The position numbers and the translations under genes are program-made. From Escherichia coli (GTDB lineage: Bacteria; Pseudomonadota; Gammaproteobacteria; Enterobacterales; Enterobacteriaceae), in the NCBI RefSeq assembly GCF_041248615.1, contig NZ_CP158426.1: a stretch of DNA of 64,000 nt, one strand, 5' to 3'. Below are positions 1 through 4,927 of the stretch, piece after piece; the first letter of the stretch is position 1, and every line of letters begins with the position of its first letter. Below the pieces are notes generated by a model that was given only the letters and a program-made list of their open reading frames with translations, did no database searches and was not told the origin of the DNA.

Positions 1-93
1 GCAGCAAATGCTTTTTTCATTGTGAAAAATTTCCATCTATAAGCCACCTCAATGTGGCGTCAATGAGTGTAGCACTGACTTTTGTTTCGTCCA

Positions 94-116
94 CAAAAAA
101 GCCCGCAGCGCGGGCT
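94..116 (-). terminator. Intrinsic terminator immediately after the 179-aa ORF stop
   Basis: GC stem agcccgc/gcgggct (100-116) with plus-strand A6 run at 94-99 (T-run on minus strand); overlaps stop codon 116-118. Confidence 0.55.
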
Positions 117-655
117 TACCAAAACTTGTACCACGGGGATTTATCCTTCAATGGACAATCCTTCCATCGTGTGGCCAACCATTCATATTCTTTAAAATAT
201 GTGTTTATGTTTTCTTTTTCTCTAATGGCTTGTATAAGAGGTAGCGCAATCTGATAGTTATTTACAACGGAGCTGTAAAATACTTCCTTAATCATGGTCT
301 CATCATAAGTTTTCCGCTTCACGCTCACAGCCATGCGTTCGTAGAAACCTAGACAGTAAATTATTTCTCTCTTCTCTGTCTTTTCTTCATCCGTAAGATC
401 AGCCTGCCCATTGCTTGGATACATATAAGAGCGGAATGATTTGTTCGATTCGTGAATGCGGCGCATAGTAGATAGGCCTTTCTTATAATCTACATCAAAC
501 CTGCTTTCACCAAGGAATACTGAAGTGTGTACTTTTCTCGCTGTATTTACATTATAAATAATAGTAGCGATAGCTATGAACAAGCCAAGCGAAACCGCGA
601 CTGCACTTACGATTTGAGCCACAGCCATGGCAAATTGCATTTCTTCACTTAACAC
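116..655 (-). CDS. Hypothetical membrane-anchored protein (prophage moron); no family assignable
   Basis: 179-aa ORF from GTG at 655 with GGAGA 7 nt upstream (alternative ATG at 640); single N-terminal hydrophobic helix AMAVAQIVSAVAVSLGLFIAIATIIY then charged soluble domain; AT-rich; own terminator. Confidence 0.55.
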   Translation of the reverse strand: MLSEEMQFAMAVAQIVSAVAVSLGLFIAIATIIYNVNTARKVHTSVFLGESRFDVDYKKGLSTMRRIHESNKSFRSYMYPSNGQADLTDEEKTEKREIIYCLGFYERMAVSVKRKTYDETMIKEVFYSSVVNNYQIALPLIQAIREKENINTYFKEYEWLATRWKDCPLKDKSPWYKFW

Positions 656-676
656 AAACTGTCTCCAGACATGAAA

Positions 677-696
677 ACGGGGCCTAATGGCCCCGT
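677..696 (-). promoter_or_regulatory. Perfect palindromic hairpin in the leader of the 179-aa gene (possible attenuator or stabilising stem)
   Basis: acggggcc-taat-ggccccgt, followed on minus strand by TTTC; preceded by a 10-codon mini-ORF with strong SD. Confidence 0.3.
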
Positions 697-840
697 CATT
701 AAACTATCCGAATGTTAAACGCCTTCGTACTCGTCAAATTTTCTCATGTGGGCTCCTCCTGTATCGGTGCCTAATCGCTATGGATCACCCGTGAGGTAAT
801 AGTAAGCTATTCACCTGCAATCTGTACAGAATTATTTAAA

Positions 841-856
841 GGCACATCCCTGTGCC
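841..856 (-). terminator. Putative terminator downstream of antirepressor gene
   Basis: Hairpin ggcaca-tccc-tgtgcc 10 nt after ant stop, followed on minus strand by TTTAAATAATT. Confidence 0.4.
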
Positions 857-865
857 GCCGCCCCG

Positions 866-1576
866 TCAGAAGAACCCTGCCTTGTCGTTGATGTATTCCG
901 CGTGAGTCTGGATATCACGCAGGCATTTGCTCACACCGACGATGTAGCAAAACATGGTGGTCAGCTCCGCCGCCGCGCCCGATACGTCGTGCCCGTCGTC
1001 CTGTAACTGGTTCAGCAGATTCATCAGCAGTGAGTTCTCCGTCAGGCCGAGAACACCAGACGGAGAATGAATCAGACTGCGGTAGCCGGGCTTCAGTGGG
1101 GCGCTGTAGGTTTTGTTCTCTATCTTCATTGCCTGCATCACTGCTGATGCTGTGGCGTTGGCTACCTGGTCGGCAACCATCTTTATGCGTTCTTCCTGCG
1201 GGAGCGAGTTTTTAATGTAACTTCCGGTGCGGCGGATCTGAGGAAGAACCTCACCTGTAACCCATTTACGAAAGCGGTAGGGGATAGTGCCTGGTGTCAC
1301 CGCATCGCGGCAGCGGAGGATCAGTGTGTAGAGGCCTGACTCGGAGATGATGTTGATCTCTTTTACTCGGCTGTCAAAAATCGCACGATGTTCATGCCCT
1401 ATGTTGAACATAGACCTTTCATCATCATCCAGTTTTTCAAGTGATTGGGTGACGTTTTGGATACGCAGCGCACTACAAACGTCTTGGGCTACAAACCATG
1501 GTTGGCCATCGATAATGATGGAACGGATAGGGTTAACAGATTCAAATTTGAAGATGGCAGTTTGAGCATTAGCCAT
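866..1576 (-). CDS. Phage antirepressor, Bro-N domain family
   Basis: N-terminal FKFESVNPIRSIIIDGQPWFVAQDVCSALRI matches Bro-N/KilA-N-type antirepressor signature; ATG at 1576 with GGAGAT SD (track ORF begins at upstream in-frame GTG 1591). Confidence 0.8.
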   Translation of the reverse strand: MANAQTAIFKFESVNPIRSIIIDGQPWFVAQDVCSALRIQNVTQSLEKLDDDERSMFNIGHEHRAIFDSRVKEINIISESGLYTLILRCRDAVTPGTIPYRFRKWVTGEVLPQIRRTGSYIKNSLPQEERIKMVADQVANATASAVMQAMKIENKTYSAPLKPGYRSLIHSPSGVLGLTENSLLMNLLNQLQDDGHDVSGAAAELTTMFCYIVGVSKCLRDIQTHAEYINDKAGFF

Positions 1577-1731
1577 GGTGGTTATCTCCACTTAGTGATT
1601 TTAATCACCACCGCAACGCCAATTACTGGTGGTGAACTGGACAAGGTTGGCGTACCGGCCTAAGTGGTACCGGCGTCCTTTCGGACCCCTGCCCAGCCCA
1701 CCATAATTCGGATATAGCTGTGCTTAACGCA

Positions 1732-1755
1732 TAAAAAAACCACGTCTGGCGTGGT
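1732..1755 (-). terminator. Putative intrinsic terminator between small paralog gene and ant
   Basis: Stem accacg-tctgg-cgtggt (1739-1755) with plus-strand A7 (T7 on minus strand) at 1733-1739. Confidence 0.45.
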
Positions 1756-1891
1756 ATGCGCCACTTAGTAACTCGGGACGCCAATCCCGGCACTGGATTT
1801 TGCCAGTGCCAGATTACTATGGCACAAGAGGAGTGCGATGTAAATTTACCGCAAAGGTAAATATAAGCACTCCAGTTGGTAATTGCAAACC

Positions 1892-2149
1892 TTATCTGGT
1901 TTGTTTTCGTAATTGTTCGGCACAATAGTCGAGATGTGTTTGCAGATCCCGCATAGACATCTGTGAGCTGGTGACGTAGTTAATCAGTGCAGTCAGTTCG
2001 GCAAGTGGGCCATCGACATTAAATCCATCCTTATCGAGATCCCGGAGTAATTTCATCAAGTGCGATCCCTCCACCAGTGACCTGACGCCTCCCGGCGTGT
2101 GAATCCTTTCGGTAAATCCGTCTTCCAGTGGATAGTGATACTGCTGCAT
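1892..2149 (-). CDS. Small hypothetical protein (86 aa), paralogous to C-terminal domain of the adjacent antirepressor
   Basis: ATG at 2149 with GGAGAAG SD; shared motifs with Ant C-terminus (IH-S/T-P-G-GV, LxExSxLMxLL, DGxxVxG, AELT, RD-I/L-QTH); longest ORF extends to 2272 but lacks RBS. Confidence 0.55.
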   Translation of the reverse strand: MQQYHYPLEDGFTERIHTPGGVRSLVEGSHLMKLLRDLDKDGFNVDGPLAELTALINYVTSSQMSMRDLQTHLDYCAEQLRKQTR

Positions 2150-2344
2150 CTTATCTTCTCCATGCAATAACTGTATATTTATACAGTAGCAAATAATTTG
2201 TTTGCTATCCAGCACGTTTTGCAAATCACCTGAAAGGTAATATCTATTCGTATTTACAGTCTTTCTATCCATATGTGGTTTTTCAGGTAATAGAATAACC
2301 AGATATGCGGCGCAACGGGTGCTGCGACTATCTGGAGATTTAAC

Positions 2345-4927
2345 ATGACGGTCTCAACCGAAGTTGACCACAACGAATACACCGGTAACGGAGTTACGAC
2401 ATCGTTTCCGTATACTTTCCGCATTTTCAAAAAATCCGACCTGGTTGTTCAGGTGTCTGACCTGAACGGGAACGTAACAGAATTGGTTCTGGATACCGGT
2501 TATACAGTAACTGGAGCTGGCACTTATAGTGGCGGTTCTGTGGTTCTTCCGTCTCCGCTTGCTACTGGATGGAGAATTACGATAGATCGTGTGCTTGATG
2601 TAGTACAGGAGACAGATCTTCGCAATCAGGGAAAGTTTTTTCCCGAAGTGCATGAAGATGCCTTTGACTACCTGACGATGCTGATCCAGCAATGTTTTGG
2701 GTGGTTCAGACGTGCATTGATGAAACCATCTTTGCTTGCAAAATATTACGATGCAAAGCAAAACAGAATTTCTAACCTTGCAGATCCATCACTTGAGCAG
2801 GACGCTGTAAATAATCGCTCAATGCGTAATTATGTCGATGCTGCAATCGCCGGAGTTGTTGGTGGTTTTGGTTGGTTTATTCAGTATGGTTCTGGGGCAG
2901 TATACAGAACGTTCCAGGATAAGATGCGTGACGTTTATAATGTTAAAGATTATGGGGCGAAAGGTGACAATATTAACGATGATACGCTAGCATTTATTGC
3001 AGCAGCAAATGCTCTCGGAGAGGGCGGAAAGTTATATATTCCAACAGGAACATACAATTTAACTGGTCCAGTTAATATACCACCAGTGAATATGTGCGGC
3101 GATGGGCAGGGTGAAACAGTTATTGTGTTTGACAATACCACATCACCAAAAGACGGCTTTGTTTTCGCTGCGCCAACTAAATATGATATTGAATTTGGTT
3201 TAAGTCACCTTACAGTTAAAAGAAAAGGCGGGAATGGAGCTAATGCTATATATACCCCAAGAGGTGTCGGGCTTAACCATCTAAGACCAAAACCAACATT
3301 TAGATTTTTATCTTTCTGTTCTGAAACTGCAAATATTGATTCTGATGAATTCGCTCAGAAATACGGCTGGGAATGGTCTTTTAACTGTGGTGATAGTTGG
3401 CAGTTCACAATCGAACGCATTGATGCTGTTGGATGTTATCAGATAGCCAAAAGTTATAATGAACAGTTCCTTGATGGATTCATTCGCACCGCTCCAGAAG
3501 AGGGGATTTTATCAATGCGTGTGAGTGATATCACAACGCATAATGTTGCAAATTTTTTTGAAATTAAGCAGAAGACATATTTTACATTGCTTAATATTGA
3601 TGCCGCCAAGGCATTACGAGGCATTTACGACGCTGATGATCGTATATTTGAAACGAATCGTTATGCTTATGGTGAATGTATATGCACAAATGTTGGTATT
3701 AATGCCCAACTTGAACCAGTACGGCTGGATAACAGATTCCTGCTCATCATGAATGGTATGTTTATTCACCGCGCAGCAAAAGGTTACGATCATGGTCTGG
3801 AATGGGTTGGTCTTAAGCTTAGTCGTGCTCGCGTGTGTTCATTCCAGGGAATTGAGATCGGCACTGCCAGAGGGTATTCAGGGACTAAGAAAGGGATTGT
3901 TCTTGACGCCGGTGATGCAAATAACTTTACCAATGTAACTTTTGGTTTGCTTGATGTGTGCGCACAGATTGGCGATTCCAATTCACAGTATGGTGCCAAC
4001 TTTGCAACATGCTTTAATAATGTGAGCATTAATGCTGACACCGTATTGTTATTCGATTTGCAGCTATGCAGAAATTTCCATTGTGATGGATACGGAGCAT
4101 CTTCTGCCTACACTCTTCAGCAATTCCATAGGAACAGTGATGACACAAGCAATACTTATACATTTAGTAATGTAGGTAAACACAATCTCTACACTGACAA
4201 CTCGCTGTACCTACATAATTCTGCTTCGCTGGAGAACGGGAAGAATATACGTATTGATACACGAAACGGATTATCTGTTAGCACTCAAGCAGATACTGGT
4301 TCCGCAGGAAATAACTTCCTTATAATTCGTAGGACTGGTGTTGATATAGACAGTTTTGAGTTAAGGACTCGCAGTACAGCAGGTGCATATACATATATTA
4401 ATACACCTGAAACTCATTTTTCTGGCCTTATAAAACCAACTGTTGATAATGTTAACTCAAACGGAACATCAGCATTTCGATGGTCACAGGTATACGCTGG
4501 TACTGGCAGTATCAACACGTCGAATGAAGAGCTGAAATTGCGTATTGAGGCTGACGAGAAAACAACAGAATCAGAGCGTCTTGCTGCGCTTGAAATAAAG
4601 GAAAATATCTGGAGGTTTAAATTTAAAGATGCAGTAAAGATCAAGAGTGATGGCGCTCGGATTCATTTCGGTGTTGGTGCACAAACTGTAGGTAATATTC
4701 TCAGAAAATACGGTCTTGACCCTAATAACTATGCGTTCTGGTGTTATGATGAATGGGATGATATTTATGCTCCAGAAGTATTGATTAGGAGTGTTAAAAA
4801 CAATGAAACAGGAGAGTGGTACGACGAGGAATATTACACAGGAAGGCAGATTATTATTAAACCTGCTGGCTATCAGTATGGTATCAGATACGAGGAACTT
4901 CTGATGTTTATTCTTATGTTTATTTAA
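2345..4927 (+). CDS. Phage tailspike: conserved N-terminal particle-binding domain, right-handed beta-helix (pectate-lyase-like) depolymerase domain, C-terminal peptidase-S74-type intramolecular chaperone domain
   Basis: 860 aa; ATG 2345 with GGAGA SD; N-terminus TGNGVTTSFPYTFRIFKKSDLVV typical of podoviral tailspike anchors; VKDYGAKGDNINDDTLAFIAAANA beta-helix entry motif; C-terminal S726-NEELK ... EIKENIWRF chaperone-like region. Confidence 0.85.
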   Translation: MTVSTEVDHNEYTGNGVTTSFPYTFRIFKKSDLVVQVSDLNGNVTELVLDTGYTVTGAGTYSGGSVVLPSPLATGWRITIDRVLDVVQETDLRNQGKFFPEVHEDAFDYLTMLIQQCFGWFRRALMKPSLLAKYYDAKQNRISNLADPSLEQDAVNNRSMRNYVDAAIAGVVGGFGWFIQYGSGAVYRTFQDKMRDVYNVKDYGAKGDNINDDTLAFIAAANALGEGGKLYIPTGTYNLTGPVNIPPVNMCGDGQGETVIVFDNTTSPKDGFVFAAPTKYDIEFGLSHLTVKRKGGNGANAIYTPRGVGLNHLRPKPTFRFLSFCSETANIDSDEFAQKYGWEWSFNCGDSWQFTIERIDAVGCYQIAKSYNEQFLDGFIRTAPEEGILSMRVSDITTHNVANFFEIKQKTYFTLLNIDAAKALRGIYDADDRIFETNRYAYGECICTNVGINAQLEPVRLDNRFLLIMNGMFIHRAAKGYDHGLEWVGLKLSRARVCSFQGIEIGTARGYSGTKKGIVLDAGDANNFTNVTFGLLDVCAQIGDSNSQYGANFATCFNNVSINADTVLLFDLQLCRNFHCDGYGASSAYTLQQFHRNSDDTSNTYTFSNVGKHNLYTDNSLYLHNSASLENGKNIRIDTRNGLSVSTQADTGSAGNNFLIIRRTGVDIDSFELRTRSTAGAYTYINTPETHFSGLIKPTVDNVNSNGTSAFRWSQVYAGTGSINTSNEELKLRIEADEKTTESERLAALEIKENIWRFKFKDAVKIKSDGARIHFGVGAQTVGNILRKYGLDPNNYAFWCYDEWDDIYAPEVLIRSVKNNETGEWYDEEYYTGRQIIIKPAGYQYGIRYEELLMFILMFI

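Follow-up and report, generated by a model that had tools for sequence, protein, structure and literature searches.

A ten-codon ORF and a hairpin precede a DUF4760 gene

The stretch of DNA analysed here, 64,000 nucleotides (nt) of Escherichia coli contig NZ_CP158426.1 and referred to below as the window, begins within a phiV10/epsilon15-like (Uetakevirus) prophage of E. coli. Close to its left end lies a small cassette made up of a ten-codon open reading frame (ORF) with its own Shine–Dalgarno (SD) sequence, a hairpin, and the gene for a 179-residue protein of the DUF4760 family. An earlier note on this DNA had described an AGGAGG motif, the peptide MRKFDEYEGV encoded at 747–715, a gap of 18 nt, a perfect hairpin followed by TTTC, and then the SD and start of the 179-residue gene, and each of these parts proved to lie exactly where it had been placed. 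The element is read on the minus strand, and all coordinates are those of the whole 64,000-nt stretch. The cassette has the following features.

760–755, minus strand: SD sequence AGGAGG of the micro-ORF, with a 7-nt spacer to the ATG.
747–715, minus strand: micro-ORF of ten codons plus TAA (ATG AGA AAA TTT GAC GAG TAC GAA GGC GTT TAA), encoding MRKFDEYEGV.
714–697, minus strand: AU-rich spacer of 18 nt from stop codon to hairpin; the sequence is not conserved, and the length ranges from 13 to 47 nt in the family.
696–677, minus strand: hairpin ACGGGGCC-ATTA-GGCCCCGT, then TTTC at 676–673.
697–673, minus strand: predicted operon-internal intrinsic terminator formed by this hairpin, with stem (G)ACGGGGCC/GGCCCCGT(T), loop ATTA and tail TTTC.
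666–663, minus strand: SD sequence GGAG of the DUF4760 gene, recognized by its sequence.
655 (GTG start) to 118–116 (stop codon), minus strand: DUF4760 gene of 179 codons, taken from the ORF list.
117–99, minus strand: canonical intrinsic terminator AAGCCCGC-GCT-GCGGGCTT followed by TTTTTG, found by the terminator scan, which closes the cassette.

The GTG at 655 is supported as the DUF4760 start because the Leu-Ser-Glu that follows it directly is conserved among homologues, and RefSeq records call a 540-nt gene with the same start. Another mini-ORF, ATG TCT GGA GAC AGT TTG TGT TAA (MSGDSLC; 672–649 on the minus strand, with ATG at 672–670 and TAA at 651–649), begins 4 nt past the hairpin and overlaps the DUF4760 start; it has no counterpart in homologues and is probably there by chance.

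The micro-ORF is conserved as a peptide

Protein-based searches recovered DUF4760 homologues ranging from 94% to about 26% identity. Upstream of every homologue with readable upstream DNA we found an SD-preceded mini-ORF, which settles in the affirmative the question, raised in the earlier note, of whether the mini-ORF is conserved in homologous prophages. The SD is strong in all homologues. Carriers of the mini-ORF include E. coli, Klebsiella, Serratia, Pantoea, Erwinia, Yersinia, Citrobacter, Pseudomonas, Alteromonas and Kingella, and their genomic settings are diverse: Klebsiella, Serratia and Raoultella-like prophages have the DUF4760 gene in the same hotspot as the window; in Erwinia and Yersinia it sits between gpK and gpI/J of lambda-like tail operons, and other siphophage tail regions hold it too; P2-like phages carry it in E. 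coli and Citrobacter, as do phages of Pseudomonas, Alteromonas and Acinetobacter; and, lastly, it is found on a Kingella plasmid and at a single chromosomal site flanked by a phosphotransferase system gene and lysA.

The encoded peptides share a core. Close to the peptide in the window (MRKFDEYEGV) are MKKFDEYEGV, MEKFDEYEGV, MSKFDEYELV and MKKFFDEYELV, followed by M[RKQ]KFDEFEGF, MKKFDEFDGF, MKK[MV][YF]DEFDGF, MKKICDEFDGF, MRINEEFDGF and MNLYEEFDGF. Further homologues have MIKFIRDEFEGF, MKRFIRDEFEWV, MKKIIHDEFEWV and MMKRIICDEFEWV; the Pseudomonas peptide is MAIKREPLLVAVVVREEYEGI, the Alteromonas peptide MNLRDGWDDI, the Kingella peptide MGKIYLEGWDF and that of the IMG/VR locus L145 MKPMHQEGWDGY. 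The core consists of the last six residues, [DE]-[EG]-[FYW]-[DE]-[GWLD]-[VFIY] (DEYEGV in the window), and always abuts the stop codon, which is mostly UAA, with UAG and UGA also present. The N-terminal part varies in sequence and in length (4–15 residues), and the second and third codons are A-rich in all members. Frameshifting or transcriptional slippage on this A-run was considered and rejected, as there is no in-frame slippery heptamer and the copy in the window has only A4. In the Acinetobacter phage the ORF encodes MKTYNKLTDGYGLG, which has no clear C-terminal motif.

What has been kept is the peptide and not the DNA. Across 15 unique ten-codon ORFs, the summed entropy of codons 3–10 at codon positions 1, 2 and 3 was 1.35, 1.35 and 7.62 bits, and the flanks of these ORFs were essentially saturated (1.2–2.0 bits per site). 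A set of 25 loci, retrieved through the DUF4760 protein alone and thus unbiased as to the ORF, gave the same picture: the last six codons occur in 21 DNA variants that encode just 8 peptides, with column entropies of 2.19, 1.37 and 8.26 for the three positions, so that the variation is almost wholly in the third position. The reservation in the earlier note that the arrangement could be chance does not survive this comparison. Since the variation across homologues is synonymous, the pattern indicates that the micro-ORF is under purifying selection as a peptide and is a genuine translated, leader-type ORF.

The linkage of the micro-ORF to DUF4760 is tight. A degenerate DNA pattern of the peptide matched 34 viral contigs, each with either DUF4760 or a 211-residue cargo (discussed below) downstream. 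Scanning metagenomes with the pattern gave 15 hits, 14 of which were the cassette leader; DUF4760 was readable downstream in 13 of these, and the contig of the fourteenth ends inside the hairpin. Among species-representative genomes the cassette is rare, because a scan of their contigs with the DUF4760 protein found no match and the degenerate ORF pattern matched only Yersinia massiliensis.

The hairpin is a predicted intrinsic terminator inside the operon

In the window, the hairpin has a folding energy of −18.4 kcal/mol (z = −3.7 against dinucleotide shuffles). A consensus terminator scan of the window does not list it at 696–677, because a G–U extension of the stem leaves only 4 T in the 8-nt tail window; the short T-run, which had been flagged as a caveat, is thus a true property of this copy. 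At the equivalent position, homologues have 23 distinct hairpins of −11.5 to −18 kcal/mol. Their stems differ by clade and are always complementary (CGGGGCC/GGCCCCG, CGGGACC/GGTCCCG, GCGGGGCT/AGCCCCGC, GCGGAG(C/A)/..CTCCGC, GCGGG/CCCGC and TCGGAGG/CCTCCGA). Behind each hairpin comes a U-run, present only on the sense strand, and the SD of DUF4760 lies within 10–40 nt; the equivalent hairpins of Citrobacter and Yersinia pass the terminator scan. In Enterobacterales and Pseudomonas the hairpin starts 13–47 nt past the stop codon and never nearer. As the sequence changes among clades while self-complementarity and the U-run persist, the hairpin is best interpreted, on comparative grounds, as a sense-strand intrinsic terminator inside the operon. 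The 10–40 nt between hairpin and DUF4760, which include the SD, leave no room for a promoter, so DUF4760 must be transcribed by read-through.

Several other roles for the hairpin were considered. It does not sequester the downstream SD, and the translation-coupled riboregulator proposed earlier is therefore not evident. A terminator or bidirectional terminator of the upstream antirepressor gene ant was rejected, since ant has its own conserved hairpin and the T-run is found only on the sense strand in all homologues. When partial transcripts from 20 homologues were folded, the 5′ arm of the terminator had no consistent pairing partner. By eye, codons 8–10 seemed to pair with the start of the spacer in several clades, as would be expected of an antiterminator or of a hairpin around the stop codon; with shuffled spacers, the mean z was −0.33 over 21 leaders, and the candidate was dropped. 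In one or two sequences only, the leader SD pairs with the 3′ arm of the terminator, and this pairing is not conserved. An Rfam search of positions 1–3000, with E values up to 10, gave no covariance-model match in the element (640–800); the nearest hit, Trp_leader, lies elsewhere, at 93–183, and scores 20 bits against a gathering score of 41.

These results bear on the proposal that the layout is a leader-peptide attenuator. The parts stand, as there is a leader ORF with an SD, an intrinsic terminator and linkage to the downstream gene, the same order as in the trp, his, leu and pheA attenuators. The classical mechanism does not: MRKFDEYEGV contains no repeated regulatory codons, no antiterminator or anti-antiterminator was found, and conservation lies at the level of the peptide sequence itself. 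Nor could the element work in the trp manner, because the hairpin lies out of reach of a ribosome at the stop codon. The attenuator idea is thus partly supported, right on parts and linkage and wrong on the classical mechanism.

The view that the ORF is a chance occurrence, with the hairpin serving only to terminate or insulate the antirepressor operon upstream, can hardly be right. Seen in this window alone, a ten-codon ORF is unremarkable, and the short T-run and the silence of the consensus scan fit such a view. However, a chance ORF is incompatible with the codon periodicity, and the antirepressor gene has a terminator-like hairpin of its own.

1591–866, minus strand: Bro-N antirepressor gene (ant), identified by domain search.
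856–841, minus strand: hairpin GGCACA-GGGA-TGTGCC, then TTTAAATAATT (840–830), directly 3′ of the antirepressor stop codon (868–866).

The hairpin at 856–841 was computed to fold and is conserved with the 3′ end of ant in 369 E. coli records, whatever the cargo; the ant transcript probably ends there, and the hairpin bounds the cargo slot on its upstream side. Moreover, ORF and terminator accompany DUF4760 where no ant is near, in lambda-like tail operons and at the chromosomal site. The comparison indicates instead that ORF and hairpin form a unit that moves together with DUF4760, always upstream of it, among the prophages of many Proteobacteria.

A putative promoter and a prophage cargo hotspot

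Upstream of the micro-ORF are a promoter-like element and an inverted repeat of which the window holds further copies.

828–823 and 804–799, minus strand: promoter-like element, TGTACA and TACTAT with an 18-nt spacer; predicted transcription start near 792.
800–784, minus strand: inverted repeat ATTACC-TCACG-GGTGAT, abutting the −10-like hexamer.
1860–1846, minus strand: TTACC-N5-GGTRA copy, at the same position relative to the −10 of the isrK/C4/ant promoter.
2240–2226, minus strand: TTACC-N5-GGTRA copy, near the start of the 2272–1892 ORF upstream of an 85-residue gene.
23980–23994, plus strand: TTACC-N5-GGTRA copy.

The promoter-like element matches 8 of 12 consensus positions and so falls under the scan cut-off of 9 of 12. 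A −10-like TA..AT hexamer lies at the equivalent place in four other loci (L028, L030, L072 and L075), and we regard the element as the putative promoter of the cassette. For TTACC-N5-GGTRA the window has 5 copies against 0.25 expected. The inverted repeat heads every cargo type in the hotspot, marks the boundary at which alternative cargos diverge, and is present in Serratia, Klebsiella and Yersinia cassettes as well. This distribution suggests a common operator for three promoters of an immunity-like region. In lambdoid and other prophages we noted different repeats: tandem direct repeats (TTGGTTCGTC ×6; CGTTTCA-like) lie upstream of the cassette in L086/L132 (~2200–2400), L083/L131, L080 and L082, and a palindrome, TTGCTCAAATTTGAGCAA, covers the −35 region, a putative operator set unlike that of the E. 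coli hotspot.

The surroundings of the cassette place it beside the immunity genes of the prophage. On the minus strand the order is an 85-residue gene at 2149–1892, the isrK, C4 and a1b1 RNAs, the Bro-N antirepressor gene, the hairpin at 856–841, the element, DUF4760, its terminator and a 53-residue gene.

1822–1625, minus strand: isrK, C4 and a1b1 regulatory RNAs, identified by Rfam.
Starting at 20 and leaving the window at its left end, minus strand: conserved 53-residue gene WP_000708858.

Rfam scores at 1625–1822 were 67 bits for isrK, 66 bits for C4 antisense RNA and 43.5 bits for the a1b1 target, the last just below the gathering score. By these matches, the region upstream of the Bro-N gene appears to be a P1 immI/Gifsy-1 isrK-type antirepressor control region in a Uetakevirus prophage.

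In phiV10, ant leads straight to a bidirectional terminator and convergent genes, and the DUF4760 cassette is absent. Other E. coli prophages carry alternative cargos in the same slot: a 211-residue protein (phrog_1349), a 210-residue relative, YafO toxin–antitoxin genes or small unknown genes. Because phiV10 lacks the cassette and other prophages hold different cargos in the slot, DUF4760 appears to be moron-like cargo in a hotspot, and the description of the ORF and hairpin as a moron leader is borne out, both belonging to the 179-residue DUF4760 cargo that phiV10 lacks. Of 5,426 complete E. coli genomes, 40 carry this cargo, and E. coli NRZ14408 (NZ_LT599825, 1472116–1472870) has a cassette identical to that of the window. 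Its company of toxin–antitoxin genes in cargo hotspots suggests that DUF4760 contributes to phage exclusion or to the fitness of the lysogen. The slot between ant and the 53-residue gene was also seen in loci L003, L004 and L068–L071; over these loci and the window, it holds DUF4760, the 211-residue protein, its 210-residue relative, YafO with or without an upstream gene, or two small unknown genes. Traces of cargo replacement were visible too: the last ~26 DUF4760 codons plus the terminator (100–193 of the window, minus strand; L005 2490–2600) stand beside the 53-residue gene in prophages of about 50 genomes that lack the rest of the gene, at 85–98% identity.

Layouts with and without the terminator

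Three arrangements of ORF and DUF4760 were distinguished. In class I (Enterobacterales, Pseudomonas and the window), the ORF is followed by the spacer, the terminator, the SD and DUF4760. In class II (the Kingella plasmid and locus L145), there is no terminator, and the stop codon of the ORF lies 3 nt before the DUF4760 ATG, in frame. In class III (Alteromonas phage P24), a gap of 37 nt contains no hairpin. The class II layout suggests translational coupling and possibly stop-codon read-through. At the class II sites L145 1430–1475 and L167 1225–1270, only a weak SD was seen for DUF4760. Because classes II and III keep the motif without a terminator, the peptide motif appears to be older and more general than the terminator.

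A further case of an ORF without terminator is found in the E. coli prophages whose cargo is the 211-residue protein. There the ORF is kept at 100% identity, and divergence sets in 13 nt past its stop codon. The first diverged bases, ATTTACC-CTAAT-GGTAAAT, are a copy of the cargo-heading inverted repeat. Because the junction coincides with such a copy, we read the ORF in front of the 211-residue gene as a probable recombination scar of a former DUF4760 cassette. As they show no substitutions, these ORFs are evolutionarily uninformative.

The DUF4760 protein

The product of the downstream gene matches Pfam PF15956 at 8e-31 and belongs to phrog_2284, a family of unknown function. It has an N-terminal transmembrane helix followed by a helical domain, which AlphaFold2 (AF2) modelled with a predicted local distance difference test (pLDDT) score of 88. 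Searches of the protein with PADLOC and NCBIfam gave no match, no further Pfam hit was found, and Foldseek comparisons with PDB and BFVD (predicted viral structures) were not significant. Literature searches returned nothing for PF15956 or for the peptide strings, and a single incidental mention of DUF4760.

A possible micro-gene with a leaky terminator

The micro-ORF and terminator of the DUF4760 family form a widely conserved unit that was previously undescribed. By analogy with mccA–mccB, we favour, with a probability of roughly 45%, the reading that it is a micro-gene followed by a leaky terminator that sets the excess of peptide over DUF4760. mccA itself has only 7 codons; its transcript of ~105 nt is abundant and stops at an intrinsic terminator located between the genes (Zukher et al. 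2014; PMC4231749). The mobile cassette would then consist of a promoter with an operator-like repeat, an SD and ten-codon micro-gene, a terminator, an SD and DUF4760, and a final terminator. The micro-ORF would be translated, with selection keeping its product and not its codon content. The Rho-independent terminator between the cistrons would end most transcripts at an estimated ~120 nt from the start, yielding a short mRNA that encodes only the peptide, and a minority of polymerases would continue into DUF4760, as would polymerases made termination-resistant in prophage induction. The peptide would thereby be held in large excess over DUF4760, and would most likely act with or on it, as ligand or antagonist. 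The geometry between stop codon and hairpin is typical of a gene end, because the spacer of at least 13 nt reaches beyond a terminating ribosome. Both the termination efficiency and an action of the peptide in trans we infer.

A more specific variant, which we regard as unlikely, makes the 10–13-residue peptide the cognate ligand or antagonist of an EP-like membrane protein, DUF4760, which would be released when peptide synthesis stops (a micro-antitoxin or gatekeeper). In this reading, the soluble domain of DUF4760 resembles the EP domain through which the plant immune proteins EDS1, PAD4 and SAG101 bind small molecules. Within a prophage exclusion or defence cassette of this kind, the internal terminator would keep a labile peptide in excess, and an infecting phage that shuts off host expression would end peptide synthesis and so free the activity of DUF4760. 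If true, the peptide would be among the smallest directly translated functional peptides of bacteria, paired with a bacterial EP-like domain.

Several observations weigh against a peptide acting in trans in excess over DUF4760. In the E. coli copy the U-run is short, at UUUUC, and termination there may be weak; both promoter use and termination efficiency at the locus are deduced from sequence. To our knowledge, it is very rare in bacteria for an unmodified cytoplasmic peptide of 10–13 residues to act in trans, whereas short conserved leader peptides with a function in cis are common. When DUF4760 was flexibly linked to its own peptide and modelled by AF2 with a paired alignment of 19 sequences, no confident docking resulted (peptide pLDDT ~35); as the model used a monomer, a shallow alignment and an artificial tether, it is weak as a negative and only mildly disfavours direct binding of the peptide to a DUF4760 monomer. 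Lastly, the ORF in front of the unrelated 211-residue gene, where no terminator follows, could mean that the ORF works independently of DUF4760.

The peptide might instead be a sensor acting in cis, and this is the alternative that we take most seriously, if with reservation. The nascent hexapeptide would slow or block termination at the stop codon, perhaps on sensing a small molecule or a translation stress such as phage infection, and the stalled ribosome would alter read-through in the terminator layout or occlude, or couple to, the start codon in the 3-nt layout. In its favour, the conserved residues stand in fixed register to the stop codon behind a variable N-terminal part, as in known termination-arrest peptides, functional 10-mers are rare, and AF2 gave no sign that the peptide binds DUF4760. 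In the Kingella/L145 layout, a ribosome held at the stop codon would cover the DUF4760 start. The order of short ORF, intrinsic terminator and gene is also that of msrDL, where stalling occurs at the UAA stop codon (PMC10314930), and termination arrest by a short peptide is established in E. coli (PepNL; PMC11890864).

Against arrest, class I shows no physical link between a stalled ribosome and the hairpin. A ribosome at a stop codon covers about 10 nt beyond it, and because the spacer measures 13–47 nt, it could not melt the hairpin, which lies outside its coverage; masking of a downstream element is conceivable only in the 3-nt layout of Kingella and L145. Neither the partial-transcript folds nor the shuffled-spacer comparison brought out a conserved antiterminator or stop-codon hairpin, the use of UAG and UGA besides UAA argues against release-factor specificity, and the gene context points to no inducer.

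Alternatively, ribosome loading on the leader might be what matters, the peptide itself being functionless. A ribosome could stabilize the short RNA, induce hairpin formation as at mccA, or block Rho in the leader. The strong SD and the A-rich second and third codons of all members agree with this, and mccA provides a precedent for both ribosome-induced termination and message stabilization (PMC4231749). Even so, we consider it improbable, because it leaves unexplained why the last six residues are conserved across phylogenetically distant carriers whose codons differ at many synonymous sites, and no segment was found upstream that could pair with the 5′ arm of the terminator.

Whichever holds, a conserved peptide and an intrinsic terminator are combined here without the usual wiring of an attenuator, and either outcome, a 10-mer acting in trans as in the micro-gene reading or an arrest peptide reaching a distant terminator by a new route, would extend known mechanisms. 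DUF4760 also gains a fixed genetic partner and an experimental handle in a micro-ORF that gene callers never annotate. Its cassette can be recognized by an SD, 10–13 codons ending in [DE]E[FY][DE][GW][VF]-stop, a terminator and DUF4760.

Comparison with known systems

As defined for lambdoid phages, morons are promoter–gene–terminator cassettes between conserved phage genes. The DUF4760 cassette resembles them in lying between conserved genes, in being missing from phiV10 and in having a terminator at its end, and its slots, in a tail operon or beside the immunity region according to prophage type, are moron-like. It differs in having a conserved translated micro-ORF and an internal terminator before its cargo gene, a combination absent from descriptions of ordinary morons.

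Among regulatory leader peptides, TnaC and SpeFL likewise have conserved residues in fixed register to the stop or stall codon and control a downstream gene. However, they mask a Rho-utilization site, whereas the terminator here is Rho-independent; no ligand is suggested here, and their peptides measure 24–34 residues, compared with 10–13 here (21 in Pseudomonas). The msrDL–msrD system and the erm, cat and vga leader peptides (PMC10314930) are similar in combining a very short conserved leader ORF with an intrinsic terminator before the gene. The UAA stop codon is the stall site of msrDL, and these systems, like the element described here, reside on mobile elements, including prophages. In contrast to these systems, the element described here shows no sequence similarity to them, has no antibiotic-resistance gene downstream, and places its terminator beyond a ribosome at the stop codon.

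The mccA–mccB operon (PMC4231749) differs in several respects. Downstream of the micro-ORF described here there is no MccB (ThiF/E1-like) adenylating enzyme, and the peptide ends in V, F, I or Y, not Asn. In mccA, moreover, RNA upstream of the terminator attenuates it and a bound ribosome restores its function, whereas no such pairing was found here. In other respects the two are alike: each has a directly translated micro-ORF (7 codons in mccA, 10 here) with a strong SD, followed by an untranslated tail of ~50 nt leading to an intrinsic terminator between the genes, so that the downstream genes need read-through. The short transcript of ~110–120 nt predicted here from the sequence would thus be close in length to the mccA RNA of ~105 nt.

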